Counted from the stretch's first letter, positions 11,017-30,729 are shown. The stretch is DNA of 64,000 bases from an uncultured bacterium (GCA_963768165.1 CAVYHJ010000002.1:195283-259282); one strand, 5' to 3'. Notes: generated by a model not told the origin, from the letters alone. Numbers and translations: made by a program.

Positions 11017-11237
11017 ATAAAAAACGCTCGAAAGGCACGTTCCCTTCGAGCGGTTATTGCCACCACTAAAAGCGCTATGTTAGAAACGTCCACTGTCTCT
11101 CCCACGCCTGCGGGGTTAGCTGTTGGGTTCGGGTTGAAAAGTAACCCTGCGCGTTTCCGCGATTCACCCCCTGACATCGGTTCCCCCGTCTCTTGCGAGC
11201 TCGGCGATCTTTCGTGGGATTCTTATTCCAAATTTAA
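11017..11237 (-). promoter_or_regulatory. Candidate c-di-AMP (ydaO/kimA-type) riboswitch leader, copy A, with intrinsic terminator
   Basis: Conserved core shared with three other copies (RNA sense ...GGGGGAACC...GGGGUGAAUC-CGCG-GAAA-CGCG-CAGGGUUACUUUUCAACCCGAACCC..CAGCUAACC..GCAGGCGUGGG); 3' hairpin CGCUCGAAGG/CUUUCGAGCG plus U-run at 11017-11055; extended -10 TGATATAAT at 11245-11253; start codon 10996 about 20 nt past the U-run. Confidence 0.6.
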
Positions 11238-11622: not shown

Positions 11623-11934
11623 ATGATGCATACTGTCTATACATATCTCTTCCGAATAGCCAGTGTATCCTTTGTGTGGTACTTATTACGTTATTTATAT
11701 GATGGTGTAGTGTTTACCTTTTATTTAAAGGAGCATTTTCATGACTTTGAAAAAAGATGGTTTAGTGGAAGTCGTGCTTACTTCAATACGAAAAGTTTTA
11801 GAGATTATATGTTTGAGTTTGACATTACCACAGAAACTACGACTTTAAAATGGCATCTTAAAAAAGTTAGAATAAGTTTTCTTTCATGTGTTGTTAGTTA
11901 TATTTTAGCGGTAGTATTTTATATTTTAAGATAG
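11623..11934 (+). CDS. Small membrane protein, tandem paralog 2
   Basis: 103 aa, MMHTVYTYLFRIA...TTETTTLK; same architecture as 11271..11591. Confidence 0.4.
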   Translation: MMHTVYTYLFRIASVSFVWYLLRYLYDGVVFTFYLKEHFHDFEKRWFSGSRAYFNTKSFRDYMFEFDITTETTTLKWHLKKVRISFLSCVVSYILAVVFYILR

Positions 11935-11986
11935 CTATATTAACCAGACCCGTTTTGCTTTGGTAATGAAGTCTTGTCGTATAATA

Positions 11987-12080
11987 GGGCTAAAGCCCTG
12001 AGAACCGTGCACTAAAGTGCCGTAGAAGAAACAATCCTTCTACCCTGCTTTAGCAGAGGGTTACTGGACTTTAGTCCAAA
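11987..12080. repeat. Interspersed double-hairpin palindromic repeat (family R1), copy 1
   Basis: Halves GGGCTAAAGCCC..GCACTAAAGTGCCGTAGAAGAA and CTTCTACCC..GCTTTAGC..GGACTTTAGTCC; same family at 14083-14186 and 25597-25686. Confidence 0.6.
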
Positions 12081-12183
12081 CCAACCCCATCCCCTCTTTT
12101 CCCCCTCCCGCCAGCGCCGGATAAACAGGTAATTTAAATAGGTGTATAATAACCCTCACTGAAATATTGAGGTATAGATAGAG

Positions 12184-12663
12184 ATGAAAAAAACAGTTTC
12201 AATAATTTTGAATATACTTTCTTTGCTATCAATGTTTTTCAGTATTTTATGGACTTTTGTAATGTCATTGTTGTTATTCCGATGTTTACTTTATCCTGTA
12301 AAGTTTTCTGTGCAAAAAGATTCCCTAACTAATGGAATTTTTTATCGTTTTGTAGCTGCATATCCTATCTCTTTTTGCTTGATTGGAATTATTGCATTTC
12401 TCGGCCAGTTAGTCGTGTCTTTTGGGGTTTTAAAAAGGTTTAAATGGGGACTGTATGGGGTAAGAATTATTCTATTTCTTTTTCTCATAGCTGATATAAT
12501 CTATGATTATAGCAATCTAACCTATATTGATATTAACATTGGATTGATTGTATTCTTGTTAATTTTCTTTTATCTCCCCATCGTCAAAAGCCTGTTTGAA
12601 AAGCAACCCCCGATTCCCAGCGAACCCACCCCCTCTTTCCCCCCTCCCGCCAGTGCCGGATAA
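12184..12663 (+). CDS. Polytopic membrane protein with Pro-rich C-terminal tail, tandem paralog 1
   Basis: 159 aa; C-terminus FLPIVKSLFEKQPPIPSEPTPSFPPPASAG nearly identical to next gene; 5' region (CCCTCCCGCCAG..TAATAACCCTCACTGAA..ATAGATAGAGATG) also duplicated. Confidence 0.45.
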   Translation: MKKTVSIILNILSLLSMFFSILWTFVMSLLLFRCLLYPVKFSVQKDSLTNGIFYRFVAAYPISFCLIGIIAFLGQLVVSFGVLKRFKWGLYGVRIILFLFLIADIIYDYSNLTYIDINIGLIVFLLIFFYLPIVKSLFEKQPPIPSEPTPSFPPPASAG

Positions 12664-12722
12664 ACAGGTTGTTTAAATAGATGTATAATAACCCTCACTG
12701 AACTATAGAGGAATAGATAGAG

Positions 12723-13268
12723 ATGAAAAAAGCTATAACCATAATAATGTACCTTCTCGCTGTCCTTTGTATCTTGTTCAGTGTGATAGGTCTTTATCAA
12801 GGAATATCCTTTTTATCTGTATTATTCTTTCTCCCAGATTCAGTTTGGTATGAAATAAAAAGCGTGGGGATTCACTCGTCCTCATCAGTCATACACACGC
12901 AGAGTGTCTTACAATGTTTTCTAGATATTATTTTTGGTATCATTCAGTTTTTTGGATTTATAGGGGTATTACAGAAAAAGAAATGGGGATTGTATTGTGT
13001 TCAGGTAGTCTTGATTACTAGTTTTATTGACTTGATTCTGACAATGATAGATTATTACTCGGTAATTCAACCGATGATGAAACAACAAGGGGGCAATGTT
13101 CATTTGTTGATAGGCGGAAATCAATGGAAATTTATAAGGGGATTTGTCTTGGAAATCATCCTCTTGGTTTTCTTTTTCCTCCCCATCGTCAAAAGCCTGT
13201 TTGAAAAGCAACCCCCGATTTCCAGCGAACCCGTCCCCTCTTTCCCCCCTCCCGCCAGCGTCGGATAA
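12723..13268 (+). CDS. Polytopic membrane protein with Pro-rich C-terminal tail, tandem paralog 2
   Basis: 181 aa; same conserved C-terminal tail and duplicated 5' region. Confidence 0.45.
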   Translation: MKKAITIIMYLLAVLCILFSVIGLYQGISFLSVLFFLPDSVWYEIKSVGIHSSSSVIHTQSVLQCFLDIIFGIIQFFGFIGVLQKKKWGLYCVQVVLITSFIDLILTMIDYYSVIQPMMKQQGGNVHLLIGGNQWKFIRGFVLEIILLVFFFLPIVKSLFEKQPPISSEPVPSFPPPASVG

Positions 13269-13303
13269 GCGAACTAATAGCGAATATGCACCGAACCAGA
13301 AGC

Positions 13304-13346
13304 GGAGCTGGTGTGGAGGTGAAAATTTCACCTCCACACCAGCTCC
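13304..13346. other. Perfect 19-bp-stem palindrome
   Basis: GGAGCTGGTGTGGAGGTGAAAATTTCACCTCCACACCAGCTCC between convergent genes. Confidence 0.6.
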
Positions 13347-13414
13347 ACTCCATATTCGGTTCAAAAAGAGTTTTGAAACATAGACCCGACCACCTTCTGC
13401 GTCCATATCCTCCC

Positions 13415-13442
13415 GTAGAGACGTAACATGTTACGTCTCTAC
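13415..13442. other. Perfect 28-nt palindrome
   Basis: GTAGAGACGTAACATGTTACGTCTCTAC; no adjacent T-run. Confidence 0.6.
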
Positions 13443-13460
13443 AGAGGAATAGGGGTGGTC

Positions 13461-13937
13461 TTAATGGGTTAGCAGATAATTGGAAACAAACAAGTTATGC
13501 CCGGAATCTTGCAATCCTTTGGCTTTTTCATCCCAAATTGCCTTTTGTGCGGGAGACAGAGACTGCCAAGCTGATTGGGCAGGGCTCATTTTCCCTCTTT
13601 GTGCCTGTTGGAGAGGGGTGCGGGGGTTCGCCCCTTCTTCGTAATCCCGGGCATACTGTGTCCCGGTTTTCCCGACGACTTGATAGGTTAATCCCTTGAA
13701 TTTCCCATGCGCCTGCAAAGAATCCAACGGGAATTGTTCGACAATGAGAACCACATCCCCGCCCAGAACCGATTGGGGAATGGAACCCAATATCCTTTTA
13801 ACTTTGGCAGGTTTCACCGTAATCCCTTCCGGTTGAAACGCAGATTGCAACGCTTTCAGTAATATTTTTTCGACCTCTTTCCCACGAAACACCTGAATCA
13901 CCTTGTTTTTAGGTTTGCGATATATATTCGTTGGCAT
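13461..13937 (-). CDS. Hypothetical protein
   Basis: 158-aa ORF with GGAGG-like RBS; no recognisable motif. Confidence 0.35.
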   Translation of the reverse strand: MPTNIYRKPKNKVIQVFRGKEVEKILLKALQSAFQPEGITVKPAKVKRILGSIPQSVLGGDVVLIVEQFPLDSLQAHGKFKGLTYQVVGKTGTQYARDYEEGANPRTPLQQAQRGKMSPAQSAWQSLSPAQKAIWDEKAKGLQDSGHNLFVSNYLLTH

Positions 13938-14030
13938 ACATGAATCCTCCTATTCTTAGTATAATACAATCCCACTTTTCCCACACATTATTTTACCTCT
14001 AAATTGATAGGTAGTAAAGAGAGGGAAGGT

Positions 14031-14050
14031 GTCGAGTCGGGAGACTCGAC
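14031..14050. repeat. Short hairpin repeat (family R2) GTCGAGTC-GGGA-GACTCGAC
   Basis: Identical hairpin also at 21546-21565 and 22151-22170. Confidence 0.55.
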
Positions 14051-14082
14051 CTATCGGATGTAGAATTCATTATGAAGTAAAT

Positions 14083-14186
14083 CTTCTACCCGGCTTTAGC
14101 CGAGGGTTTCTGGACTTTAGTCCAAACATTTCAGAAGAGAATGGGCTAAAGCCCAAAGAACCGTACACTAAAGTGTCGTAGAAGAA
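14083..14186. repeat. Interspersed double-hairpin palindromic repeat (family R1), copy 2
   Basis: CTTCTACCCGGCTTTAGCCGAGGG..GGACTTTAGTCC...GGGCTAAAGCCC..ACACTAAAGTGTCGTAGAAGAA. Confidence 0.6.
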
Positions 14187-14195
14187 TAGATTTAT

Positions 14196-14894
14196 TTATT
14201 CTTTGGCTCCGGCATCTTTCAGGAGTTTTACGATGTCGTCATATTTCTTATATGTCGCTATTGATAAGGCAGTTTTACCATCATTGGTTTTCGTATTGAT
14301 ATTGGCTCCTTTATCTAGCAAGGCTTTCATGGTATCCATACGACCACCACGAACCGCCCACATCAAAGCAGTATAACCAATAACATCTTTCGCATTGACC
14401 TCCGCGCCTTTCGCTAATAAGGCTTGTACGGTCTCGTTATGTCCTACAACTGCCGCATTCATCAAGGCGGTCATACCGTACTTGTTTTTCGCATTGACCT
14501 CCGCACCTTTCGCTAATAAAGCGTTCACGATATTCGTTTGGCCCCACCATGCCGCTGACATCAAGGCGGTGTTACCAAACTTATTTTTTACATTAACATC
14601 GGCTCCTTTCGCCAATAAAGCTTGCACGGTATCTGTATGACCATTTTCTTCTGCTAACATCAAAGCGGACACACCTGTACTATCTTTCACATTCGGGTTC
14701 ATCCCCGCATCCAAATATAATTTTATAACATCGGTTTTGCTATGTCCTGCACATTTAAAAAACTCATCTTCGCTATAGGTAATCTTCATTTGCGCCAGTT
14801 CATTACGCGCTTCTTGCGGGGTTTTGGCGAAGGAAGGGAATACCAGGAACAAAAATAGTACAAGAGAGAGACACGGTAATGGTTTCAATTTCAT
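14196..14894 (-). CDS. Secreted ankyrin-repeat protein
   Basis: Signal peptide then repeated TALM.AA..GH...V..LL.KGA.VNAK units; AAGGAG RBS. Confidence 0.8.
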   Translation of the reverse strand: MKLKPLPCLSLVLFLFLVFPSFAKTPQEARNELAQMKITYSEDEFFKCAGHSKTDVIKLYLDAGMNPNVKDSTGVSALMLAEENGHTDTVQALLAKGADVNVKNKFGNTALMSAAWWGQTNIVNALLAKGAEVNAKNKYGMTALMNAAVVGHNETVQALLAKGAEVNAKDVIGYTALMWAVRGGRMDTMKALLDKGANINTKTNDGKTALSIATYKKYDDIVKLLKDAGAKE

Positions 14895-14976
14895 TATAAT
14901 TGGTACTCCTTTTTCCTCTAGAATGTATGGCGTCGGGAAAAAGAAGAGCGTTTATTCCCGACGCAGTTTTATTCTG

Positions 14977-15783
14977 TTATTCTTTCGCCCCGGCACTCTT
15001 GAGGAGTTTTACGACGTCGGGATGGTTCTCTTTTGCCGCGTCCATCAAAGCAGTATGACCTTCATTATCTTTCGCATTGACTTGAGCACCTTTTTTTAAT
15101 AAGACTTTAACGGTCTCTGCATGACCTGTGACTGCCGCAAACATCAAGGCAGTCCTGCCATTATTGATTTTCGCATTGACTTCAGCACCTTCTTTTAATA
15201 AGACTTGCACAGTCTCCGTATGACCATTCACTGCCGCTAATATCAATGCGGTCACACCACCCTTGTTTTTTGCATTGACATCCGCCCCTTTTGCTAATAA
15301 GGTTTGAACGATCTTCGTATAACCAAACTCTGCCGCAAGCATCAAGGCGTTTTTACCTTGTTTAGTTATCGCATCAACTTTTGCCCCTTTTGCTAAAAGG
15401 GCTTGCAACGTATCTGTACGACCACTAAGTGCCGCCCATGTCAATGGGGTCCAGTCATCGTTTGATTTCGCATTAATATCAGCACCTTTCGCCAATAAGG
15501 CTTGTAGAGTCTCAATATTATTATGAAATGCCGCAGCCATCAAGGGGGTTCGACCATTATCGTCTTTCAAATTCGGATTCATCCCAGCATCTAAAAACAA
15601 TCTCACAGCGTCAGTTTTGCCGTGTTGTGCACAAAAGAGAAATTCATCTTCGCTATAGGTTATTTTCATTTGCGCCAGTTCATTGCGCGCTTCTTGCGGG
15701 GTTTTGGCGAAGGAGGGGAATACCAGAAACGAAAATAGTAAAAGAGAGAGGCTTAATAATGGATTGAATTTCATCATACTTGG
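14977..15783 (-). CDS. Secreted ankyrin-repeat protein (paralog)
   Basis: Start placed at internal MMKFNPLLSL (AAGGAG RBS) rather than the ORF-track start; same N-terminal FLVFPSFAKTPQEARNELAQMKITYSEDEF as neighbour; at least six ankyrin units. Confidence 0.8.
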   Translation of the reverse strand, partial: PSMMKFNPLLSLSLLLFSFLVFPSFAKTPQEARNELAQMKITYSEDEFLFCAQHGKTDAVRLFLDAGMNPNLKDDNGRTPLMAAAFHNNIETLQALLAKGADINAKSNDDWTPLTWAALSGRTDTLQALLAKGAKVDAITKQGKNALMLAAEFGYTKIVQTLLAKGADVNAKNKGGVTALILAAVNGHTETVQVLLKEGAEVNAKINNGRTALMFAAVTGHAETVKVLLKKGAQVNAKDNEGHTALMDAAKENHPDVVKLLKSAGAKE

Positions 15784-16064
15784 TACTCCTTTTTCCCAAA
15801 GAATGAGAGAGTTTTTTATTACCGATAGCATACTCCCTTCTAGAACCCAGAGTCAAGTTAAAGAGTGGAAGGAACGGGAGAAACGGAGAATGGGCGAGAG
15901 AGCGAAATAGAATCAGGAATGAAGGAAAAGGTCAAATATGTTACCTGCTCCAGCAAAGAGATACCCATTATTTTGCCTATAAATAGACAGGTAGAAAAGA
16001 GTTGAAAAGATAACAGATTGTGCTATAATTTTTCTTAGTCAAAAACGGTCGGGAGGACACTTCG

Positions 16065-17670
16065 ATGAAAACACGTAAACGCATTATTGTTATTTCACAT
16101 TTTCTGTTAGGACTCGCTACGATGATTCTGATTTTACCCGGGAGCGGGTTCGGGAACCAATTGGTGTATTCCACGTATCTGGGCGGGACGAGCGATCATG
16201 CGGAATCATTAGGGATTGCGATTGATACGGCTGGGAATATCTATATTACCGGATTTACCAAAGCACCGAATTTTCCCGTCACAGCATCCGGCTACGATAC
16301 AGTGTATGAAGGCGCGGGAGAGCATGTGTTTGTAAGCAAAATCAATCCGAGTTTATCGGGTGTCTCGTCTTTAGTCTATTCCACTTTTCTTGGCGGAGAG
16401 GGATATGAACTTGCCCGGGGCATTGCGGTGGATAGCGCGGGGAATATCTATGTAACCGGCTTTACCAACTCCTCTACCTTTCCAGTAACCGCGAATGCCT
16501 ACGATACAGGATTACATGGCGCGGAGTACGCGGCTTATCTCAGCGAAATCAATCCGAGTTTATCGGGTGCTTCTTCGTTGGTGTATTCCACGTATCTGGG
16601 TTCGGGTTACGCGGGAGGCTATGGCATTGCCCTTGGTAAATCCGGCAATGCCTATATTACCGGCTCTCAAAGCTATTACACGTTCCCGGTAACTGCCAAT
16701 GCCGTGGATACTGTGGGTACCGGCAATGATGTCGCTTTTATCTCTGAATTTAATACCAGTTTATCGGGTGTCTCCTCCCTGGTCTATTCGACTTTGCTGG
16801 GACCCAAGGACACTTTCGCCGCATATGCCAATGCCATCGCCGTAGATACTTCAGGGAAAATTTACGTAACCGGATTGACGGACTCGTCCACCTTACTTAC
16901 CACAACCAATGCGTTTAATACGACTTTTCATGGGTTACAGGACACGTTTGTGAGTGTGATAAATCCTAATGTGGCGGGATTGGCGGGGTTGGTGTATTCG
17001 ACCCTGCTGGGAGGAAGCCCCGCTAATTACGAGGATTCCGGCAATGGAATTACGGTAGACAAAGCGGGTATTGCCTATGTCACCGGTGTAACAGAAGACA
17101 CAATCTTCCCGGTGACCGCCATTGCCTATGACACCGTATTCAAAGGAAACGGAAATGTATTCCTGTGCAAAATCAATCCGTCCTTATCGGGGGTCTCGTC
17201 TCTGGTCTATTCGACATTATTAGGCGGCAGTGGGGGCGAGGGAGGGGAAGCCATTGCCATTGATACTGCCGAGAAAGTCTATGTGACAGGGTACACATTT
17301 CCCGGTCACGGCAGACGGGTATGATACGACATTCAACGGAACTCAGGATGTTTTTGTGACTGTATTGAATCCCAACTCATTGGGAACCTCCGCTTTGATT
17401 TATTCGACCTTTCTGGGAGGCAATAGCTATAGCGATGGACAGGGAATTGCTCAAGACAATAATAACAAAGTGTATGTCACAGGATATACCTATGCATCGA
17501 ATTTCCCCATCACCTCCAATGCTGTCAGCACTTCTTTACGAGGGACTGCAGGCAGTAACTATGATGCCTTTGCCACGGTGCTGAATATCACTCCTCCGGT
17601 AGCGGTCAATGATTGGATGCTGTATGCAGAGCCGGAAGTGGCGCAAGGGAGTGAGTCGGGAAAGAGGTAA
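16065..17670 (+). pseudogene. SBBP (beta-propeller) repeat protein disrupted by frameshift/deletion
   Basis: Repeating LVYSTYLGG...IYVTGFT...FPVTA.AYDT units; frame 0 stops at 17324 (VTGYTFPGHGRRV*) while the repeat continues in frame +1 from 17299 (FPVTADGYDTTFNG...). Confidence 0.55.
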
Positions 17671-17700
17671 AAAGCGGTTTGTTATCGAGGGAATAGTATC

Positions 17701-18039
17701 TTACTTTTTATCTGCTTCAATTAATGAATTTGTGTTTATCGACTCGAAAGCAAAAATGATTTTAAAAAGTATTATATAAAGAATAAGCATGAGAAAAATA
17801 ATCGGTAGCCTCTGATCAAAATAGGTTAGGTGATACGCACCGCATAAAGACATAGTGATAATATAAAGAGTAAACGATATTAATCCATTTATCAAACCGT
17901 ACATGAACCTTTTTTTTGCCATAAATCCTTTATGACATTTAGGGCATTTCAAGGTATAGTTGTACAAAGAGAAAAGCACATTCCCAAAAGTTATTACGTG
18001 TCCACATGCTGGACAGGGTCTGGAAAATTTCATGAACAA
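17701..18039 (-). CDS. Zinc-ribbon (CPxCG...CPKCHK) membrane protein
   Basis: N-terminal MKFSRPCPACGH..CPKCHK then two TM segments; paralog at 21703..22083. Confidence 0.45.
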   Translation of the reverse strand: MFMKFSRPCPACGHVITFGNVLFSLYNYTLKCPKCHKGFMAKKRFMYGLINGLISFTLYIITMSLCGAYHLTYFDQRLPIIFLMLILYIILFKIIFAFESINTNSLIEADKK

Positions 18040-18562
18040 TCAATCTTTCTCACTGAATTGTCTTTATTATAACATATAGGTAGGTTATTTTGATTTAAAC
18101 GAATAGTTCCGAATAGCCAGAGAACTTACACTGATAAAAGATTCCAGCAGGTTTTTTTAACTATATCGGAAATGAGTATATTTCTCTTTCCCGATAAAGA
18201 GAAATTGCCATACATTGCGGTTAATAACAGTCAGTTTTCCCTTAATTAAAAACGGTTTTTAAGAATCAGAATTTATTTTTCTGTGACAAATCATTTAACA
18301 AAATACTGAAACGAGTCATGGTTGACAAAGAAAAATACTTACTATATATTGTAGTCCTGGCTAGGATTAATTAGTAACTGTTGAAAATCCTGTTTCTATA
18401 GATGAACCAATTAAAACTTGTGTATGCTCATGCAATACTTTTTCTCCAAAAGAAAAAAGTAAACCATTTATTTCATTGGAGATAAGTATTTGCCATTTGG
18501 TAAATATTATTCTATTATCATTAGTATATACCTAGGATTTATATGGTTTGTCTATAGCTTAA

Positions 18563-20090
18563 ATGCCAACATTTCTAGCAAGGAATATTCCGGTAAGTAC
18601 AAAATATAAAAATCACTTAGAAAAGGACCATAATATATTTATTCCGTTGTTGTTCTTTGTGATTTATTGTTTCAGTTTTATATTTCACGATCCAATCACA
18701 CACATTTATTATGGGTATTGGCAATTATTACCTTTGGATGCTTTACTTCAACATCCCATTAGTAGTTTACTCCTGATTCACTCACAACCTCCCCTGCTTA
18801 ATCTACTGTTTTATATCGTACATATTCCATCCATGATATGGGAAATCAATCCTCAATTCACCGCAACGCTTTTATTTTTCTTTATCTCCCTATTCTCGAT
18901 ATATGTCTATTACAACCTGGTTTTTCTTATCACAAAAAATAAAGTATGTGGCATGGCCGTTCTTTCCCTCATTCTACTCAATCCCGGTTTCTCCTTTTTT
19001 CAGGGGTATTTCTTTTATCAGAATATGGACTTTTTAGTCAGTGGTATCCTGGTCTATCAAGCCTGTCTGTGGGCACTAAAACCGGATTTATACCGATTTG
19101 GAGGCGTGGTCATAGTGTATACTACAATGGTTTATTTACGGAGTTTATGGCATCCTCTTTTCGGATTTTTTATCGTTCTCTTTTTACCCCTAATGATTTA
19201 TCCAAAAATGAATAAAAAAATAATCCAAAAGCATTGGATCTATGGCAGTCTCCTTTTTATTTTATTAATCAGTCCTTGGATGTTAAAAAACCTTATTTTG
19301 TTTAACACCCCTTCTTTTTCTTCCTGGCTGGGTGGAAACCTTGGTGGTCAACGATTTTCGAAATTCATTCTTTCCAATAATCCAGCCGATGCTTTTGATA
19401 ACTCTTTGGTTAAACAATATTATTCCGACTGGCAATTAAAGATTTTAATGAATTATCCTGCTACTGCAGACATCGAAAAAAATTTAATTTCTGCCCCCCC
19501 CCTACATGAAGAGAAATTTAAATCACTACGCCCTTCCTGCAATCTGTAATGAGGATATGAAAGAGCGAATATCCTATTATAGAGAACACCCCTACCAATA
19601 TATACAGAGAATCTATTCAAATTTTGTCTACATGGATCTTCCCCCATATATTAATTCGTATACACAGGATTCAACAACAGGTTGGTATGGCGGTTTGCAA
19701 CGGATGGGAACTTATGGATATTGGTATGATGTCATATTTTATGGAAGTTGGTTTAGAAATTTTATAGTCATACATACCCTGGATTTTGTATACAGACCCA
19801 GCCTGTTTATCTTCATACTGATCCTGCTGTTATTACTCAGCATTCGGTTGGCAATCAATCAAAAGACAGAACCTATCCAGAGAATATTTTATTTCTTGTC
19901 ATCGTTAATGTTTCTCTGGTTTCTTGCCATGATTTTACTGATCGATGGAAAGGAAAGTAACCGAATGAGATGGGATATGGAAGGGATCTATCTATCAATC
20001 CTGGTTGAACGATGTTACGCCCTCTATCAATCTTTGAGGATACATAAACCGAATAATAAAAAACGGGTCCAAGTCAAACGCAGTAAATAA
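18563..20090 (+). pseudogene. Polytopic membrane protein split by frameshift at a 9-C homopolymer
   Basis: ORFs 18563..19549 and 19506..20090 overlap in different frames at the C9 tract 19494-19502; removing one C fuses them (...ISAPPYMKRNLNHY...). Confidence 0.5.
19494..19502. repeat. Poly-C homopolymer tract (9 nt)
   Basis: CCCCCCCCC at the junction of the two overlapping ORFs. Confidence 0.9.
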
Positions 20091-20205
20091 CAACATTTAT
20101 TTATTCAACTAACCTATACATGAATGTTAATCAAGTTAATGGTAGACATGAGGTTGTGATTCGCTGGTGAGATGTATCGGGAATGACACACACAAGAATA
20201 AAAGG

Positions 20206-20262
20206 TTACTTGGCTTTGGCGGAGTGGTTGTAGATAGCCAGGGAGATGACGCTGAGAAAGGG
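20206..20262 (-). pseudogene. 3'-terminal remnant of a kdpD-like gene
   Basis: Minus strand encodes DPFLSVISLAIYNHSAKAK*, matching the C-terminus of the KdpD-like gene at 23023 (FLSVISLAIYNYSAKTK*); no open upstream frame. Confidence 0.4.
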
Positions 20263-20307
20263 GTCGGAAAATACGCCAAGAGCGCTCCTTCTCGACGCAT
20301 AATTCAA

Positions 20308-20418
20308 GTAGTAACGAGAGATTCTTCACTTCGTAAAAAACACTACGCTCAGAATGGCAGATAGGGGGACGATGGGAAGAAGGCGTCGGGAAAGAGATAA
20401 AAGGCGGGTTGTTATCGA
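20308..20418. repeat. Composite repeat (R3+R4), copy 1
   Basis: GAGATTCTTCACTTCGTAAAAAACACTACGCTCAGAATGGCA ... GTCGGGAAAGAGATAAAAGGCGGGTTGTTATCGA; related copies at 21586-21695, 22951-23002, 17661-17695 and inverted at 7294-7333. Confidence 0.55.
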
Positions 20419-20426
20419 GTCACAGT

Positions 20427-20906
20427 TCAGGATTTCTTGATTAATTTGAAATCCAGTACAGAAAGGAAATAGATGAATGAAGCATAGACTAGAATTACAA
20501 CACACGTCAAAATATATTCCCTTTGCTCCGGTAAATTTTTTATCACTCGCACATCTTTATTCGCCGAAATCAGACTGAATAATTTCGCTATTTGCAAAAA
20601 TAATAATACCGATAGCATAGAAAGCGTCAGAGTTTTAGCCCCAGGTCTTTTGCGTAAGATTCCAATACAACCAATAATTAAACACAGGGTTAAACCAAAT
20701 TCTAGAACGACTCCAATAATTGTTACTCGCAAAAACTGCGCATTACTTACGCCCGCAAACCCAAAAATTAAATAGACCAACGCAAAGCCCATTATTAACA
20801 GAAAACATACTCCCAAAGTGAGTAGAAGTATAACCCAAGGACGATAATGCTTGTTAACAAAAGATTTCATCTTTTTCTTCCCACGACGTAATCTTATATC
20901 TAACAA
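20427..20906 (-). CDS. Hypothetical polytopic membrane protein
   Basis: 159 aa with four hydrophobic segments. Confidence 0.4.
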   Translation of the reverse strand: MLDIRLRRGKKKMKSFVNKHYRPWVILLLTLGVCFLLIMGFALVYLIFGFAGVSNAQFLRVTIIGVVLEFGLTLCLIIGCIGILRKRPGAKTLTLSMLSVLLFLQIAKLFSLISANKDVRVIKNLPEQREYILTCVVILVYASFIYFLSVLDFKLIKKS

Positions 20907-21039
20907 GTTTCGTTGTCAATCACCTCCAAATTATAGAGGCGAAGTTTACCCTGCGCCTACGGTTTAGTTGAGAAAAAACGCGAGAAGGCGTCGGGAAAGG
21001 CTTGAAAAGTGAGACGTTCCCGACTCAGGAGAAATACGT

Positions 21040-21261
21040 TTACAGAAGTTTAAGGAATTCTTCCACGGTTAAACCGGAATTGCGGATGAGCGCTCGCAGA
21101 GTCCCTACTGAAAGTTCCTTGTGCTGGGGAATCGAGAGATTGACCCGGATTCCGGGTTTGACGAGAACCAGATGACTACCGACCTGACCCATGACCTGCC
21201 ACCCGGCTTTTTGAAAAGCCTTGGCGGCTTCCCTCCCAGAAATATTGGCCAGTCTCCCCAT
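21040..21261 (-). CDS. hicA: Type II toxin-antitoxin system HicA-family toxin
   Basis: 73 aa; SGREAAKAFQKAGWQ...GSH...GTLRALIRNSGL matches the HicA pattern. Confidence 0.7.
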   Translation of the reverse strand: MGRLANISGREAAKAFQKAGWQVMGQVGSHLVLVKPGIRVNLSIPQHKELSVGTLRALIRNSGLTVEEFLKLL

Positions 21262-21265
21262 TGGA

Positions 21266-21481
21266 TCAAACAGCGACTACAACCGGAGAGTGACCTTTGG
21301 CGGGTTTGCGTTTTCGCAGGGCTTTTTGGTCTTCCGCCCATAGCCAAGCGGTGATGGCTTCTTTTACATTTTCCAAGGCTTCTTTTTCGTCTTTACCTTG
21401 GGAAACGCAACCGGGGAGTGCGGGAACCTCCGCGACAATCCACCCGTCTTCCGCTTTCTCTAATAAAACGTGAAACATCAT
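21266..21481 (-). CDS. hicB: Type II toxin-antitoxin system HicB-family antitoxin (UPF0150-like)
   Basis: 71 aa; MMFHVLLEKAEDGWIVAEVPALPGCVSQGKDEKEALENVKEAI matches the small HicB pattern; 4-nt gap to hicA. Confidence 0.7.
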   Translation of the reverse strand: MMFHVLLEKAEDGWIVAEVPALPGCVSQGKDEKEALENVKEAITAWLWAEDQKALRKRKPAKGHSPVVVAV

Positions 21482-21585
21482 AATCGTTTGTCCTTTATTT
21501 TTTCCTCAATGACTCTAATATACCATAGAAATAGTTTCAAAGGCAGTCGAGTCGGGAGACTCGATCTAAAAAAGATTTACTTCAG

Positions 21586-21695
21586 GTAGAACACAGGGAT
21601 TCTTCGCTCCGTAAAAAGCACTACGCTCAGAATGACAAATTTGGAGGCGGTGGGGATTGAGTCGGGGAAGAGATAAGAAACGGGTTGTTGCTGAT
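21586..21695. repeat. Composite repeat (R3+R4), copy 2
   Basis: GGTAGAACACAGGGATTCTTCGCTCCGTAAAAAGCACTACGCTCAGAATGACA...GTCGGGGAAGAGATAAGAAACGGGTTGTTG. Confidence 0.55.
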
Positions 21696-21702
21696 TAGGA
21701 TT

Positions 21703-22083
21703 TTATTCTTTTGGGTTATCCTTGAACAGGTTATATAACAAGGGGTAAGCTGGTTTCCATTTTGTTTCTATTAATGTAACGTTGTCAAAGATGAATAAAG
21801 TTAAGATGAATCTGTAAACTATCTCAAAAACAAGTATAATTGGAATTAATAAAATAATGACCTCAAGCGGGTTTAGAATATTCACAAATTGCAATGTAAA
21901 TAAAACAATTAATATAATGACTAGACTTATTGCTTCTACTATTATAATCCCTTTACGCCAAGCTTGCGCCCAGTAGACTTTATGACATTTTGGGCATTGC
22001 AAATGATATCTATATAGTGTGGGAAGCATTTCCCAATTAGAAACACTATGTCCACATGCCGGACAGGGTCTGGAAAATTTCAT
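21703..22083 (-). CDS. Zinc-ribbon membrane protein (paralog of 17701..18039)
   Basis: MKFSRPCPACGH...CPKCHK followed by two TM segments. Confidence 0.45.
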   Translation of the reverse strand: MKFSRPCPACGHSVSNWEMLPTLYRYHLQCPKCHKVYWAQAWRKGIIIVEAISLVIILIVLFTLQFVNILNPLEVIILLIPIILVFEIVYRFILTLFIFDNVTLIETKWKPAYPLLYNLFKDNPKE

Positions 22084-22326
22084 ATCAAATTCCTTTTCAT
22101 TTCCAAACGCAGATTATAGCATTAGTGGAGGGCGGCGGGAATAGTAAAGTGTCGAGTCGGGAGACTCGACCTATCGGATAGAGGAATGGTCAAAACCAAT
22201 TTCTTACGAATATCATAAGTCGTATTGATTTAAACAAAAAGTAAGCGTAATATAATGGGGTTCAGACCATGGAAATTATCATTCACCCACGATATGATAC
22301 CGGGGATTTATTCAGGAGGGCAGGTC

Positions 22327-22956
22327 ATGAAACGCTTGATTTGTTTGTTAACAATCACTCTTAGTATAGGTTTTGTAACGCAATTATGTTGGGGTTACTC
22401 CTCATCGGAATTGATAATTCCGCCATCCGCCAGAGTACCCGGGTCTGTATCCAGCCAAGATACTTCCGCAAATACGCCCCCAATACGAAACTATGTTAGC
22501 GAACTTCCATCTTCTTTTAAAAAGGATGCCAATGAAATTTATAATTTTTCCGTTAAAAGTCTGGAAGGTAAATATACCCACATGGGGGACTATAAAGGGA
22601 AAGTCATCGTGGTCAATTTCTGGGAATCCACCTGTTATCCAAGTTATCTGGAATTGTTCAAAATCGAAAGCTTGGCTAATTTTGACAAGAGAAAAGAAGT
22701 GGTCATTATATGTGTCGCCGAGGATGACGAGAAACTCCTACTTCATTATAAGGACAAAATCCCCCAGCTTTCATTCCCCATCTTTACTTATAACCAGTTT
22801 GATATACCGGATGCGCTGGAACATGAATATGTCCCCACCACGTTTATCATCAACCAGAACGGTAAAATTATACTGGCAGAATCCGGTATCATTGAAGGTT
22901 TCCAACTATGGGAAGAAATCCAAAAACTCCTTCCCCACAAACCAAACACCAAGTAA
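22327..22956 (+). CDS. Thioredoxin-fold (TlpA/redoxin-like) protein with single-Cys site
   Basis: Start set at MKRLICLL (AGGAGGG RBS); VVNFWESTCYPS aligns with the WxxWCxxC redoxin site but the second Cys is Ser. Confidence 0.5.
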   Translation: MKRLICLLTITLSIGFVTQLCWGYSSSELIIPPSARVPGSVSSQDTSANTPPIRNYVSELPSSFKKDANEIYNFSVKSLEGKYTHMGDYKGKVIVVNFWESTCYPSYLELFKIESLANFDKRKEVVIICVAEDDEKLLLHYKDKIPQLSFPIFTYNQFDIPDALEHEYVPTTFIINQNGKIILAESGIIEGFQLWEEIQKLLPHKPNTK

Positions 22957-23022
22957 CGAGAGATTCTTCGCTCCGTAAAGAGCACTACGCTCAGAATGAC
23001 AATTTTGGGGGTGGTGGGGATG

Positions 23023-25002
23023 CTATTTGGTTTTGGCGGAGTAGTTGTAGATAGCCAGCGAGATGACGCTGAGGAAGGATTCGAGGAGATAGTCCTGTTC
23101 TTGCGAGAGGAACTGAGAATCCTGCGGACGACCGATAGCGAGGACGCCGACAATATCGTTTTTGACGTTCAAGGGGATAAAGCGCCACGCGGAAGAGGAG
23201 AGAGTCTGGGTCTCCCGACCGGCAAGTTCCTTGTGCTCAAATACCCATAAAGCGATAGTCATTTCGTGACTATTAAATTTCACAGAGTCACCGGTTTGGG
23301 AGCGGATAGTGAGTTTACCGGTTTTGTCGGGAAGCAGGAGCGCCGAGTCACAGGCGAACATTTCGGAAATGTCCGAACTGATTCTATCGAGCAAATCAAT
23401 AAACCCGATAGCGTGATACAAATCCTGGCTGAATTCATTGAGCAACGAAATGTACCGCACCTGGGTGCGGGAAGATTCCGATTGCCGTTTGAGACGGTCG
23501 GCAAGGAGACTTGTCACAATGCCGACTAAAAACATGACAAAGAACGTGGGCAGATAACTCATATCGCTGACTGTAAAAGTGAAAATCGGCGGAACAAAAA
23601 AGAAATCGAAACAAAGCACGCTCAACAGGGATGCGACCAGACCGCCGATGAGTCCGCGATAAATCCCTGACAGAATCACGGGAATGATGAATAAAAGGGC
23701 AACATTCGTGAGACCGATGTAAGAATGAAGAGGAAAGCAAATGAGAGTGGTTGCGCCCACGATGGCAAGGCTCATAAGATAGGAACGCCAATCAAGAACG
23801 AGATTGCTTCGTCGCTGCGCTCCTCGCAATGACAAAGGTTGTGGTGACGATTCGCCACCGACTACCAAGACTTGAATAGGATTGCTTTTATCAATAATCT
23901 GGTTCAAGAGTGACCCGCGTATCATTCTACGAAACCGGGATTGGCCGGAGAAACCAACAATAATCAACGAGGCATTTTTTGAACGGGCAAACCGCACGAC
24001 TTCATCGGCAGGCTGGTTGCTGGAAAGACGGACAATTTTCCCGCCCAATTCTTTGGCGAGATTAAAATTCTTCTCCAACTGTTTAGCCCTTTGCGGGTCG
24101 AGCGTAGTTTGCACCTGTGGTTCGACATAGACCGCAAACCAATCGGCTTTTAAATCTTCCGCCAACCGATGTGCCACGCGGACGGGTTGTTCGGACAAGG
24201 GACTCGGACTGATACATACCATAATCCGGGTGCCGACGGGCCAGGGACCTTTAATGCCCTGCAATTGCATGTAAGAGAGCATGGCATCGTCCACGTGCTT
24301 GGCGGTATAGCGCAGGGCTAATTCGCGGAGCGCGAGCAAAGTGCCTTCTTTAAAATAATTCTGGGAGGCGAGTTTCGCCATATTGGCCATGTAGACTTTA
24401 CCTTCGGTTAAGCGCTGGAGAAGTTCTTCCACGGGAAGGTCTACGAGAGCAATTTTATCCGCCAGTTCCAGAATGCGGTCGGGGACGGTTTCCTTCACTT
24501 CAATTTTGGTAATTTGATAAATAATGTCATTGACACTTTCAATATGCTGGATGTTCAAGGTGGTGTAGACACTGATACCGTTATTGAGGAGTTCTTCAAT
24601 ATCTTGAAACCGTTTTACATGGCGTGACCCGGGGACATTGGTATGCGCCAATTCATCCACCAGAACATATTTGGGTTTGCGCTTAAGAATATAGTCCAGG
24701 TTAAACTCATCCAAGACCATACCCTGATATTCTATTTTCAGGAGGGGAGAACGTTCCAATCCAAAAATCAACTGTTCGGTTTCGGCACGACCATGGGTTT
24801 CGACAATGCCGATAATGATATCTTCGCCCTTTTGTTTGATCGCCTGGGCTTCCTGCAACATGCGGTAGGTCTTGCCGACACCGGCCACGTACCCTAAGAA
24901 TATTTTAAGAAATCCCCGGGTGCGATGCTGCTGTTCCTGTTCTTTATTAAACAGGTTCAGCAGTTGATCCGGATCGGGGCGATTTTGATTCTGTTCAACC
25001 AT
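23023..25002 (-). CDS. kdpD: KdpD sensor protein lacking histidine-kinase domains
   Basis: N-terminal P-loop GVGKTY, USP-like region, 4-TM block and GAF-like C-terminus; ends at 659 aa with no H-box or HATPase motifs; directly downstream of kdpC. Confidence 0.75.
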   Translation of the reverse strand: MVEQNQNRPDPDQLLNLFNKEQEQQHRTRGFLKIFLGYVAGVGKTYRMLQEAQAIKQKGEDIIIGIVETHGRAETEQLIFGLERSPLLKIEYQGMVLDEFNLDYILKRKPKYVLVDELAHTNVPGSRHVKRFQDIEELLNNGISVYTTLNIQHIESVNDIIYQITKIEVKETVPDRILELADKIALVDLPVEELLQRLTEGKVYMANMAKLASQNYFKEGTLLALRELALRYTAKHVDDAMLSYMQLQGIKGPWPVGTRIMVCISPSPLSEQPVRVAHRLAEDLKADWFAVYVEPQVQTTLDPQRAKQLEKNFNLAKELGGKIVRLSSNQPADEVVRFARSKNASLIIVGFSGQSRFRRMIRGSLLNQIIDKSNPIQVLVVGGESSPQPLSLRGAQRRSNLVLDWRSYLMSLAIVGATTLICFPLHSYIGLTNVALLFIIPVILSGIYRGLIGGLVASLLSVLCFDFFFVPPIFTFTVSDMSYLPTFFVMFLVGIVTSLLADRLKRQSESSRTQVRYISLLNEFSQDLYHAIGFIDLLDRISSDISEMFACDSALLLPDKTGKLTIRSQTGDSVKFNSHEMTIALWVFEHKELAGRETQTLSSSAWRFIPLNVKNDIVGVLAIGRPQDSQFLSQEQDYLLESFLSVISLAIYNYSAKTK

Positions 25003-25012
25003 TGATTTTCAC

Positions 25013-25579
25013 TTATTTTTTAAGGACATCCAGTGCCATATTCAATTTTAATACATTGACAACCGGATCGCCGAACAACCCCAAGAGAGGTTTTTCGGTA
25101 TATTTTTGAACCAAATCAGTTACGACATCATCCTGCAAACTGCGAGATTTTGCAACTCTTGGCACTTGAAGCAAGGCGGCATCCAGACTTATATGGGGAT
25201 CGAGACCGCTGGCCGAGGATGTGACCAAGTCCACGGGAACAGGCGCATCGGGTGGCAAATTATTTTCCGCACGAACCGCGCGTGCCGTGGAATCAATCTG
25301 GCTAATCAATTTCTGGTTGGTGGGACCGAAATTGGTCGCATTGGAATTGGTGGCATCGAAATTAGCCGCCGAGGGACGCCCGTGGAAATATTCGGGTTTG
25401 GTGAAGGATTGTTCTATTAATTCGGAACCAACAACCTTGTTGTTCACTGTCGCCAGACTGCCATTGGCCTTGTGTGGGAAAAGTATCTGTGCGATTCCGG
25501 TCATTGCCAACGGGTATATCAACCCGGTGAGAATGGTGAATACGATTAAACTCAAGATGGAAATTTTTAACTGTTTCAT
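25013..25579 (-). CDS. kdpC: K+-transporting ATPase subunit KdpC (operon 1)
   Basis: 188 aa, N-terminal TM, conserved GRPSAANFD and SGLDPHIS segments. Confidence 0.85.
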   Translation of the reverse strand: MKQLKISILSLIVFTILTGLIYPLAMTGIAQILFPHKANGSLATVNNKVVGSELIEQSFTKPEYFHGRPSAANFDATNSNATNFGPTNQKLISQIDSTARAVRAENNLPPDAPVPVDLVTSSASGLDPHISLDAALLQVPRVAKSRSLQDDVVTDLVQKYTEKPLLGLFGDPVVNVLKLNMALDVLKK

Positions 25580-25596
25580 TTGTATAATCTCCTTTT

Positions 25597-25686
25597 TTAA
25601 TAACTTCTACCCGACTTTAGTCGAGGGTTCGGGGACTTCAGTCCCAATTTAAGGGCTAAAGCCCTAAGAACCGTGGACTAAAGTCC
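25597..25686. repeat. Interspersed double-hairpin palindromic repeat (family R1), copy 3
   Basis: CTTCTACCCGACTTTAGTCGAGGG..GGACTTCAGTCC..GGGCTAAAGCCC..GGACTAAAGTCCCGTAGAAGAA between kdpC and kdpB. Confidence 0.6.
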
Positions 25687-25702
25687 CGTAGAAGAAAATA
25701 TG

Positions 25703-27739
25703 TTATGCCCAACCTAATACAACGATGAGCATGTCAATTAGTTTGATACCGATGAAGGGAAGAAGCACTCCGCCCAACCCATATACCAGTAAATTCATTT
25801 TCAAGAACGAGGAAACGGAAACGGCACGTAATTTGACGCCCCTCAATGCCAACGGGATTAAGAACAAAATAATAATCGCGTTGAAAATGACGGCGGACAA
25901 AATCGCACTCCCAGGATTATTTAACCTCATCACATTCAGAATATTCAACTGCGGATAAGCGACCGCAAACATTGCCGGAACGATGGCGAAATATTTCGAG
26001 ACATCGTTGGCAATACTAAAAGTAGTAAGCGCGCCACGCGTGATAAGGATTTGTTTTCCGACTTCCACAATATCGAGAAGTTTCGTGGGATTGGAATCCA
26101 AATCAATCATATTGGATGCTTCCCGCGCCACCTGCGTGCCTGCATTCATAGCGACCGCGACATCGGCTTGCGCGAGAGCGGGTGCGTCATTAGTCCCGTC
26201 TCCAATCATCGCGACAAGGTTACCGTCCTCTTGTGCCTTGCGAATTAATGCCAATTTGGTTTCGGGTTTGGCCTGAGCAACGAAATCATCCAGCCCGGCT
26301 TCCGCGGCAATCGAAGCAGCGGTGAGCGGGTTATCGCCGGTAATCATGGTGGATTTGATACCCATTTCACGGAGTTGCGCGAGACGAGCTTTAATGCCTT
26401 GTTTCAGAACGTCTTTGAGACGAATCACGCCAAGAACTCTTTTCCCGTCAGAAACGACCAAAGGCGTATTACCTTGTTTGGCGAACCCTTCCACGATGTC
26501 CTTGACTCCGGCAGGGATTGTGGCATTGGACTGTTTCAGAAATTCTTCAATCGCGTCCAAGGAACCCTTGCGGATTTTTTTGCCATCAATATCAATCCCG
26601 CTCATGCGTGTTTCGGGAGTGAAAGGTACGAACACGGCACCTTCGGGAGCACGGATATCGCTTCCCTTGATACCTTTTTCGGTTTTACAGAGGGTTACAA
26701 TACTTCTGCCTTCGGGAGTTTCATCGGATAGTGAGGATAACAAGGCACAGTCCACCAATTCTGCTTTTTCAACTCCAGCAGAAGGAACCAAATCGGTTGC
26801 CATACGATTGCCGAGAGTGATGGTACCCGTCTTATCGAGCAAGACGATATTGACATCGCCTGCCGCTTCTACCGCACGACCGCTCAGAGCGATGACGTTG
26901 TGTTGTAATAGTCTATCCATCCCTGCGATACCGATAGCGGGAAGTAAACCGCCAATGGTGGTCGGCATGAGGCATACCAAGAGAGAAATCAATATCGGGA
27001 CGGTGGTCGCGATACCCAAATAATTGGCATAGGTGGGCAGGACGATAACGACGATTAGGAACAACACTGTGATGCCGACAAGGAGAATTTCTAAAGCGAT
27101 TTCATTGGGTGTCTTTTGACGTTTCGCGCCTTCGACCATAGAAATCATGCTATCGAGGAATGTCTCACCGGCATTCGCCGTGATACGGATTTTGATATGT
27201 CCCGATAATAGTTTGGTTCCACCAGTCACGCCACTGCGGTCACCACCGGATTCCCGAATCACGGGAGCGGATTCACCAGTGATGGCAGATTCGTCCACAA
27301 GAGCGACGCCTTCGATAATTTCTCCATCACCGGGAATGACTTCCCCTTCAATAACCAGAATCAAATCGCCTTTGCGAAGATCCAAGGCGGATACTTTTTC
27401 TTTCGCTCCACTTTCCAATATTTTAAGAGCAAAGAGTTCGCTGCGTGCTTTCCGCAAAGATTCCGCACGTGCTTTCCCTTGAATTTCCGCCAAGGCTTCC
27501 GAGAAGGTGGCGAAAAGAACGGTCACCCAGAGCCAAAGGGTAATTTGCAAATTAAACCCGAAACTGGCATGATGGGTGATATTGATTACCGTGATGATAG
27601 TGGTAATCACAGCGCCGATTTCAACGACCAACATTACGAGATTGCGCCATAATAAAAAGGGATTTAATTTTTTAATAGCTTCCTGCAATCCCTTGAACAG
27701 AAAGTCCGCTTGAAATATACTTCGTTTCGTTTGTGCCAT
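25703..27739 (-). CDS. kdpB: K+-transporting P-type ATPase subunit KdpB (operon 1)
   Basis: P-type motifs [21 protein letters not shown]; 678 aa. Confidence 0.95.
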
Positions 27740-27806
27740 ATATTATCTCCTTAGAACCACCACCCCCTTCCCCCTCCTTAATTAAGGAGGGGGACTGAGG
27801 GAGTGA

Positions 27807-30716: not shown

Positions 30717-30729
30717 TTTTAGGACCTCC

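Follow-up and report, generated by a model that had tools for sequence, protein, structure and literature searches.

The R1 repeat in the 64-kb window

The DNA analysed here is a stretch of 64,000 nucleotides (nt) from an uncultured bacterium (GCA_963768165.1 CAVYHJ010000002.1:195283-259282), referred to below as the window, in which positions are counted from the first letter. A first-pass annotation had described two families of small palindromic repeats in it, R1 and R2, and had taken them for elements resembling repetitive extragenic palindromes (REPs) or miniature inverted-repeat transposable elements (MITEs), or else for small structured RNAs. It had placed all of them between genes and one inside a kdp operon, and our analysis agrees with this placement. 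All window copies of R1 and R2 are intergenic on the map of open reading frames (ORFs), and one R1 copy lies between kdpC (25013-25579, minus strand) and kdpB (25703-27739, minus strand), both of which, together with the kdpA and kdpD-like genes around this copy, were confirmed with Pfam.

Each copy of R1 is an inverted pair of arms of ~43 nt. When an arm is written so that GTAGAAG comes last, it consists of an inner hairpin (NNNN-CTAAAG-NNNN), a linker of 2-4 nt and a tagged hairpin of 26 nt (AACC-N5-CTAAAG-N4-GTAGAAG). Since the C and the G of CTAAAG are able to pair, the apex shared by both hairpins of an arm is a TAAA tetraloop, and the inner hairpin can be drawn as NNNN-C-TAAA-G-NNNN and the tagged hairpin as AACC-N-[bulged T]-NNN-C-TAAA-G-NNN-N-G, followed by TAGAAG. 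Every window copy combines one X arm, which is of the C..G type (AACCCT...GGGTAGAAG, or CTTCTACC...AGGGTT in the opposite reading), with one Y arm of the G..C type (AACCGT...CGTAGAAG). Both half-orders of the repeat that had been annotated are indeed present, as the CTTCTAC/GTAGAAG ends are outermost in copies 2 and 3, forming head-to-head (HH) dimers with outward tags, and face each other in copy 1, which is a tail-to-tail (TT) dimer with inward tags.

Three copies had been annotated and three are found, with two sets of coordinates now revised; no strand is assigned to a dimer as a whole. Copy 1 (11987-12080, TT) is composed of a Y arm on the plus strand (inner hairpin 11987-11998, tagged hairpin 12003-12028) and an X arm on the minus strand (tagged hairpin 12037-12062, inner hairpin 12065-12079), with an 8-nt spacer separating the facing GTAGAAG and CTTCTAC tags. 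Copy 2 (14083-14184, HH, hence ending at 14184) has its X arm at 14083-14108 (minus strand) with an inner hairpin at 14111-14125, and after a spacer its Y arm with an inner hairpin at 14142-14154 and the tagged hairpin at 14159-14184 (plus strand); it is flanked by the first R2 copy, R2-1, and by the stop of an ankyrin-repeat gene at 14196. Copy 3, the HH dimer in the kdpB-kdpC gap, spans 25604-25694, which is ~7 nt to the right of the 25597-25686 given before, and consists of an X arm at 25604-25629 (minus strand) with an inner hairpin at 25632-25645 and a Y arm with an inner hairpin at 25653-25664 and the tagged hairpin at 25669-25694 (plus strand). The predicted single-stranded DNA folds of the three composites are local hairpins closed by a tag-tag stem, with z from -3.5 to -6.3; four local hairpins plus the tag-tag stem are predicted for copy 1 (z = -4.2), and copy 3 has z = -6.3.

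The pattern AACCNNNNNCTAAAGNNNNGTAGAAG has exactly 6 matches in the window, two per copy, against an expectation of 0.00 from 100 shuffles, and none is expected in these shuffles even with two mismatches permitted. An unfiltered covariance-model scan of the 64 kb returned the same six units (42-46 bits) along with the inner hairpins and nothing more, and the density of R1 is three dimers per 64 kb. All 11 CTAAAG/CTTTAG sites of the window with at least 3 flanking complementary bases fall in R1. These loops had been ascribed to the R1 hairpins in general, which holds for 11 hairpins; the twelfth (25632-25645) carries CTTCAG.

Pairing in the tagged hairpin was analysed with 47 distinct 26-mers from the window and other genomes, chance matches being kept in. 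With the T at position 6 bulged, 82% of cells pair compared with 55.5% in shuffles, none of 500 shuffles reaches 82%, and sliding the partner leaves only 26-47% paired. The register without a bulge, which contains a conserved T-G wobble, gave a poorer 72% and was rejected. Four of the five pairs have changes on both sides, and the composition of pair 5-19 is CG 24, GC 7, UA 3 and AU 2. What does not vary in R1 is AACC, the bulged T, the TAAA loop together with the pair that closes it, and the tag GTAGAAG, which is unpaired, while the 3-4 bp of stem between these parts vary freely; the six tagged hairpins of the window all have different stems, each self-complementary. The 26-nt tagged hairpin is a short imperfect palindrome of the kind found in REP systems, where such palindromes measure about 20-40 nt.

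R1 in other genomes and in the kdp operon

A scan of GTDB species representatives with the 26-nt R1 pattern gave at least 112 exact matches at at least 100 loci (denoted here by L numbers), none of them from the window's own genome. About a dozen matches lack a stem, as expected of chance matches, and the rest fit AACCCT-NNN-CTAAAG-NNN-GGGTAGAAG. The R1 covariance model finds 209 units in the 100 scanned loci, and units recur on many contigs of the same metagenome-assembled genomes (MAGs). These MAGs are labelled as Falkowbacteria, Paceibacterota, other Patescibacteria, WOR-3, Zixibacteria, Gemmatimonadota and uncultured Gammaproteobacteria, with one Omnitrophica MAG and several unclassified bacteria among them, and MAGs from several phyla, as labelled, share an identical R1 26-mer. 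The first-pass annotation had argued that repeats confined to the window would indicate local duplication; since R1 is found across many genomes, local duplication is ruled out for this family. The two pattern matches in viral contigs are both stemless and are chance, and none of six longer R1 strings occurs in the full-text literature searched. A contig of an independent assembly ends inside an R1 loop, which is a typical effect of a repeat on an assembler and at most hints at a copy number in the tens to hundreds, as REPs reach in their hosts.

By a crude ORF calling, 190 of 212 R1 units in other genomes (~90%) are situated outside ORFs, so that R1 is both extragenic and dispersed, as are the repeats of REP systems. 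Gene boundaries often lie less than 40 nt from the GTAGAAG end and rarely near the AACC end, so that GTAGAAG is the outer terminus of R1. For solo units the next downstream gene boundary is a start in 32 cases and a stop in 31. This count bears on the possibility that R1 is a structured RNA, either a small RNA, a cis-regulatory leader or an intercistronic element, whose CUAAAG loops would bind a protein or an RNA. The strong stem covariation and invariant loops would suit such an RNA, as would the frequent location of the GTAGAAG end 5-40 nt from a start codon and the co-transcription of copy 3 within its operon. However, solo units face gene ends about as often as gene starts, their neighbouring genes are unrelated across many phyla, and the inverted, tandem and nested arrays and stacked partial fragments (described below) resemble mobile DNA, as does the presence of R1 units on both sides of a transposase gene. 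No Rfam family matches R1: Rfam 15 has nothing over R1 or R2 at gathering score, and in a search at E <= 10 over 11900-14300 only (R1 copies 1-2 and R2-1) the sole overlap was noise from a microRNA model. We therefore regard a structured RNA as highly improbable. The narrower reading as a 5' untranslated region or leader RNA, to which the frequent position of GTAGAAG before a ribosome-binding site and ATG could point, was rejected on the orientation count.

Neighbouring R1 units in the other genomes form 68 tag-outward (HH) pairs and 13 close tag-inward (TT) pairs with gaps of 1-16 nt, and tandem arrays are also seen. The inner gaps of the HH pairs cluster at 0-3 nt, giving a compact form, and at 37-61 nt, where two inner hairpins are present as in the window. 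R1 thus has the inverted dimers of REP systems. Nested arrays and stacked partial fragments (repeated ...CGGTAGAAG) occur as well. At two Falkowbacteria loci (L076, 1399-1460; L094, 5958-6010) partial 3' fragments (GCCGGTAGAAG CTCGGTAGAAG CTCGGCAGAA) are stacked beyond a complete R1 arm, and it is possible that they are footprints of repeated insertion or excision at the tag.

The flanks of the HH dimers are about 80% A/T, and no consistent target-site duplication is seen at these dimers, as among 57 distinct flank pairs 28 have no nucleotide in common and the others are at chance level. A classical MITE, that is, a deletion derivative of a DDE-type insertion sequence (IS) with terminal inverted repeats, could be imagined from the 7-nt inverted termini CTTCTAC/GTAGAAG of the HH dimers and from the IS4-like DDE transposase encoded at 56015-57274 in the window. 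Such an origin is hardly credible for R1. What the flank pairs share fits chance in AT-rich DNA with no sign of a target-site duplication, R1 often occurs as a single arm or as a TT dimer, the IS4-like element has inverted repeats with no relation to R1, and the gene that is found between R1 arms in other genomes (see below) is of the HUH/Y1 type and not of the DDE type.

Copy 3 lies in the first kdp operon, where the kdpB-kdpC gap is 123 nt long and R1 comes after the stop codon of kdpB and before the ribosome-binding site of kdpC. The same gap measures 13 nt in the second, paralogous operon of the window, in L117 (KdpC ~70% identical) and on the contig carrying P0124 (~70% identical). In L116 it is filled by a different repeat, and neither L116 nor L117 contains R1 units. 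The 13-nt gap in the paralogue and in two related operons indicates that the R1 insertion between kdpB and kdpC is derived.

The two paralogous kdpABC operons (25013-29507 and 30141-34560, minus strand) are ~5 kb apart and 71-76% identical in DNA. A further palindrome, TCCCCCTCCTTAATTAAGGAGGGGGA, occurs twice in the window (668-703 and 27759-27794), and the copy at 27759-27794 takes up the gap between kdpA and kdpB in operon 1, so that both intergenic gaps of this operon carry repeats. In L116, a related kdp operon, the kdpB-kdpC gap (9881-10000) and the kdpC-kdpD gap (10583-10732) are occupied by other repeats, CACAAAGGCACGAAGTCACAAAG-like and GGATTCCCG...CGGGAATGAC. Small repeats have thus landed repeatedly at the junctions of these operons.

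A RAYT-like gene flanked by R1 units

ORFs located between A-oriented and B-oriented R1 arms were searched for a linked gene. Homologous ORFs of ~190 amino acids (aa) were found between arms in L012 and L079 and, frameshifted, in L031, and tblastn with this ORF added L001, L023 and L045; the ORF lies between arms in L001 too, where the flanks have both X-type and Y-type arms as in the window. The protein contains the motifs NHYHLKF (HUH) and GYxxGNLLKH (Tyr). It scores 28.2 bits with Pfam Y1_Tnp, above the 23-bit cut-off, and its best model is NCBIfam REP_Tyr_transpos (E = 1.7e-10 and 1.4e-7, near full length), the model of REP-associated tyrosine transposases (RAYTs), with the NCBIfam IS200 model far weaker (E = 0.021). 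The AlphaFold (AF2) model of the protein, at a predicted local distance difference test (pLDDT) score of 90.7, has as its top PDB match in Foldseek 4er8_A, the E. coli TnpA-REP bound to a REP hairpin (E = 6e-8), followed by the ISDra2 and IS608 TnpA transposases. Homologues form at least 250 clusters in a database search, mainly from Patescibacteria and also from an Elusimicrobiales MAG, and some of their sources carry the names 'transposase' or 'REP element-mobilizing transposase RayT'.

In the reciprocal test, loci were fetched by protein identity alone, which gave four loci in five records (L111, L112, L113/L114 and L115). All of them have R1-type units within ~170 nt on both sides of the gene, usually in the arrangement CTTCTAC-arm ... 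gene ... arm-GTAGAAG. The arms in L115, from the Elusimicrobiales MAG, bear the variant tag TTCCAC instead of CTTCTAC, which suggests that the tag variant travels with the variant protein. In total, R1 units flank a RAYT-like gene at eight loci, all from other genomes. What defines a 'REPtron' is a Y1 gene with its own repeats on either side (PMC3733652, PMC8266576, PMC6006769).

In L115 (1-320) the RAYT-like gene comes after an ABC2_membrane_6 gene. Other ORFs between R1 arms show nothing transposase-like; these are a 297-aa ORF in L075 and, in L099, a pair resembling aspartyl proteases. The three ORFs between R1 copies 1 and 2 of the window (12184-13937) have no Pfam or NCBIfam match and are not a transposase.

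Because the same units flank a RAYT-like single-stranded DNA transposase gene in other uncultivated bacteria, we read R1 as REP-type hairpin DNA. It is probable that R1 is an extragenic palindromic element of the REP/REPIN type (REPIN, REP doublet forming hairpins), similar to a bacterial interspersed mosaic element (BIME), and belongs to a divergent RAYT system. Among the identities first proposed, REP is thus retained for R1 in view of covariation, dispersal, dimers and RAYT linkage, whereas the MITE part lacks support in view of the missing target-site duplication, and the RNA part in view of the missing Rfam match and orientation bias. Integron attC and Xer/dif sites were discarded on inspection by eye, as R1 lacks their core motifs.

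By analogy with TnpA-REP and the IS200/IS605 transposases, a mechanism can be proposed in which an R1 arm would fold in single-stranded DNA and a RAYT-like HUH/Y1 tyrosine transposase, encoded elsewhere, would read the C-G-closed TAAA loop, the bulged T and the unpaired GTAGAAG tag while being indifferent to the sequence of the covarying stem. Cutting and rejoining of single strands would then spread R1 into AT-rich intergenic DNA without target-site duplication. The recognition determinants of TnpA-REP and other REP systems are the GTAG tag, the bulge and, in some systems, the loop (PMC8266576), and these are exactly the invariant parts of R1. The R1-linked protein presumably mobilises R1 units, with loop, bulge and tag as its likely recognition code, and the source genome of the window probably has, or had, such a gene; both the code and catalysis by the linked protein are suggested by analogy.

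Comparison with known systems supports a REP-like behaviour and also sets R1 apart. The REP/BIME elements of E. coli with their TnpA-REP (RayT) (PMC8266576; PMC3479197) are likewise short hairpins outside genes whose stem is irregular and whose tag, of the GTAG type, is unpaired; their Y- and Z-type units alternate in inverted dimers, which the X and Y arms of R1 recall, and the same units flank a single HUH/Y1 gene whose product, 4er8, is the best structural match of the R1-linked protein. However, the E. coli tag stands 5' of the hairpin ('preceded by ... GTAG', PMC8266576) and that of R1 stands 3'. The E. coli rayT flanks we examined read GTAG-hairpin ... hairpin-CTAC, in contrast to CTTCTAC-hairpin ... 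hairpin-GTAGAAG for R1, so R1 is not a canonical GTAG REP, though REP-like in behaviour. R1 also differs in having two hairpins per arm with the same C-TAAA-G apex, in its stems of 5-6 bp with mixed AT and GC pairs, and in its irregularity, which is a single bulged T where E. coli has an AA/GC mismatch.

The REPINs of Pseudomonas fluorescens, with their RAYTs (PMC3116915; PMC5581495), resemble R1 in that the putative mobile unit is made up of a spacer and two REP units in inverted orientation, and this unit is non-autonomous and extragenic and shows compensatory stem changes. They are described as lineage-specific and mostly vertically inherited, whereas the R1 26-mer is identical across MAGs of several phyla. 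In the GTAG-tagged REP super-family and the SMAG elements of Stenotrophomonas, for which REPtrons and HH, TT and head-to-tail (HT) dimers are described (PMC3733652), the terminal tag is unpaired too, sub-families have alternative complementary stem residues and REPs flank RAYT genes. R1 has its tag on the opposite side of the hairpin from these elements and is distinguished further by its conserved 4-nt loop and variable stems.

The IS200/IS605 elements (IS608, ISDra2) share the HUH/Y1 fold, the recognition of subterminal single-stranded DNA hairpins with an extrahelical T and the lack of target-site duplication. Their left- and right-end hairpins have the same orientation on the active strand, in contrast to the inverted arms of R1; the IS200 model scores far under the RAYT model on the R1-linked protein, and this protein has the extra C-terminal region typical of RAYTs (~190 aa vs ~130-150). 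Neither hairpins in the same orientation nor a TnpA of the IS200 type is thus found with R1. The SDRs (small dispersed repeats) of Nostoc, according to Elhai et al. (2008), are reportedly very small hairpin-associated repeats that occur nested or adjacent, as R1 units do. Their sequences are unrelated to R1, and we know of no transposase for them.

Several points weigh against a REP assignment of R1. The 100 loci were chosen by the R1 pattern itself, and the phylum labels of their MAGs may include binning errors. The R1-linked protein is remote from characterised RAYTs, its likeness being at the level of profile and fold: REP_Tyr_transpos gives 41 bits against a curated cut-off of 80, a PDB sequence-profile search with the RAYT-like family returned no relevant match, the fold search alone giving the link to TnpA-REP, and hhalign against E. 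coli RayT reaches only E = 0.11, though the HUH, Tyr, N-x-x-K-H and PFS motifs line up. The canonical 5' GTAG tag is not present, the R1 order being hairpin-GTAGAAG. Mobility is suggested by presence and absence in operons whose proteins are ~70% identical, and so by a comparison between species. Lastly, the 64-kb window was found to contain no RAYT-like gene, and its six different stems are unlike a recently amplified population.

These last two features would also fit a view in which the R1 copies here are immobile relics or host-co-opted structural sites, amplified or acquired long ago, for which no active transposase is needed. The hairpins would then act in DNA or in polycistronic mRNA, and the kdpB-kdpC copy could uncouple translation or make the mRNA upstream of it more stable, effects that have been proposed for REP/BIME in E. 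coli. Compensatory changes have kept the pairing of the six stems, which fits long residence under structural constraint, and copy 3 fits exactly into the interval from the stop codon of kdpB to the ribosome-binding site of kdpC. Two WOR-3 MAGs (L074 and L097) share an R1 insertion site with near-identical units, despite differing flanking coding DNA. However, related kdp operons work with a 13-nt gap, so copy 3 is not needed there. We consider this view unlikely; it concerns present activity and not origin, and does not conflict with the assignment to REPs.

R1 is best read as an unusual branch of a known kind of mobile repeat, with double-hairpin arms and reversed tag polarity, and not as a new RNA. 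Somewhat more tentatively, it may constitute a REPtron lineage that we did not find described, defined by its double-hairpin arms (C-TAAA-G, bulged T, 3' GTAGAAG), a remote RAYT clade and horizontal spread across Patescibacteria, or the candidate phyla radiation (CPR), and at least 5 other phyla.

The R2 hairpin, further elements and implications

R2 had been annotated as a perfect hairpin with a GGGA loop at 14031, 21546 and 22151. The sequence GTCGAGTCGGGAGACTCGAC is exact at 14031 and 22151, with a chance expectation of 0, but in the copy at 21546 the last base is mismatched, so that the closing pair is weaker; this is its one mismatch. On the minus strand the unit reads 5'-ATAG-GTCGAGTC-TCCC-GACTCGAC, with 24 nt, a perfect stem of 8 bp and a 4-nt loop. 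All three copies are on this strand. R2-1 (14031-14054) lies ~94 nt upstream of the start of the minus-strand ORF 13461-13937. R2-2 (21546-21569) has the tag TTAG, precedes the minus-strand, hicB-like ORF 21266-21481 by 65 nt and adjoins a GTAGAAC-tagged repeat at 21586-21640. R2-3 (22151-22199) comprises an ATAG-tagged hairpin (22151-22174) and a conserved spacer with a small hairpin, TGGTCAAAACCA, and is situated 68 nt upstream of ORF 21703-22083 (minus strand).

A metagenome scan for R2 returned six matches, two of which are on genuine contigs (L108 and L109; GC 40-42%) with shared flanks; the other four were rejected as chance matches in apparently coding sequence of high-GC contigs. R2 was not found in viral contigs and is absent from the 100 R1 genome loci, where only unrelated GAGTCGGGA matches occur. 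In L109 it forms an inverted doublet around a conserved ~40-nt spacer containing a small hairpin, and R2-3 corresponds to half of such a doublet. The L109 doublet stands ~94 nt upstream of a 66%-identical homologue of ORF 13461-13937, which is also the position of R2-1, and the remainder of that upstream spacer has diverged. In five of six R2 copies ATAG is directly 5' of the stem, and this order of tag, 8-bp stem and 4-nt loop gives R2 the canonical REP polarity. With its ATAG, perfect 8-bp stem and short loop, R2 is most like the GTAG-tagged REP super-family and SMAG elements of Stenotrophomonas.

R2 is thus a second family, unrelated to R1, with canonical REP geometry; it is of low copy number and lineage-restricted, and the evidence for it is thinner than that for R1. 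It is either a low-copy REP-like element or a regulatory hairpin. In the latter case R2 would be a conserved regulatory or insulating hairpin just upstream of promoters (an operator or a terminator-like insulator) and no mobile REP. As the three window copies are all oriented alike, each 65-94 nt before the start of a minus-strand ORF, we retain this as a serious, though on balance doubtful, rival. The unchanged distance to the 66%-identical ORF homologue in L109, where the remaining spacer diverged, and the restriction to two genuine contigs in the metagenome scan agree with it. However, the three downstream genes are unrelated (an ORF without known function, hicB and a zinc-finger membrane protein), the L109 doublet with its conserved spacer is REPIN-like, the L108 copy is inside other repeats, five of six copies have the REP geometry, and no U-tract follows the hairpin on either strand.

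R2-2 adjoins a hicB/hicA-like toxin-antitoxin pair (21040-21481, minus strand), and in L109 (1-350), too, the R2 doublet comes after a pair of hicBA type. The GTAGAAC-tagged repeat, one copy of which is 20 nt from R2-2, represents a third family in the window (7297-7332, plus strand, and 21586-21640, minus strand) with the sequence GTAGAAC-ACAGG-GATTCTTCGC...GCTCAGAATGAC, that is, a 5' GTAG tag and then a hairpin; similar GTCATTCC/GCAATGAC hairpins are present in L014, L015, L031 and L108. Between convergent ORFs, a long hairpin of 77 nt (13287-13363) is located beside a perfect 28-nt palindrome (13415-13442), GTAGAGACGTAACATGTTACGTCTCTAC, which is tagged GTAG...CTAC, gives a weak sub-threshold match to Rfam whalefall-1 and is absent from all fetched loci. 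The IS4-like element (55984-57442) has its DDE_Tnp_1 transposase gene (56015-57274, minus strand) between 34-nt imperfect inverted repeats and is unrelated to R1 and R2.

A kdpD-like sensor gene without kinase domain follows the first kdp operon only, and three P-II genes (34820-37028) come after the kdp operons. Four cyclic di-AMP (c-di-AMP; ydaO-type) riboswitches of 92-101 bits on the minus strand (11090-11216, 29750-29873, 35440-35565 and 38110-38234) precede an amino-acid permease, kdp operon 1, a P-II gene with kdp operon 2 and an M23 peptidase. For one window, this is a c-di-AMP regulon of unusual density. At 48952-55965, three paralogous genes of glycoside hydrolase family 44 (561, 808 and 828 aa) stand in tandem, and their aligned DNA stretches are 71-91% identical.

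For the window itself the conclusion is modest, namely that R1 and R2 would be selfish or co-opted hairpin DNA and no new regulatory system. REP elements and RAYTs have been studied almost entirely in cultured Proteobacteria, where families are genus-specific and the geometry of tag and then hairpin is a key recognition feature. The R1 family would extend this kind of repeat to uncultivated lineages, including CPR bacteria with reduced genomes. With its invariant loop, bulge and tag, its free stems and its tag on the opposite side, R1 would amount to a natural experiment in recognition. Repeats of this type break metagenome assemblies, enlarge operon gaps as in kdp and risk being taken for regulatory RNAs. 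The distribution of R1 suggests wide horizontal spread and, if this is true, such near-identical units would contradict the view that REPIN-RAYT systems are specific to a lineage and inherited vertically.

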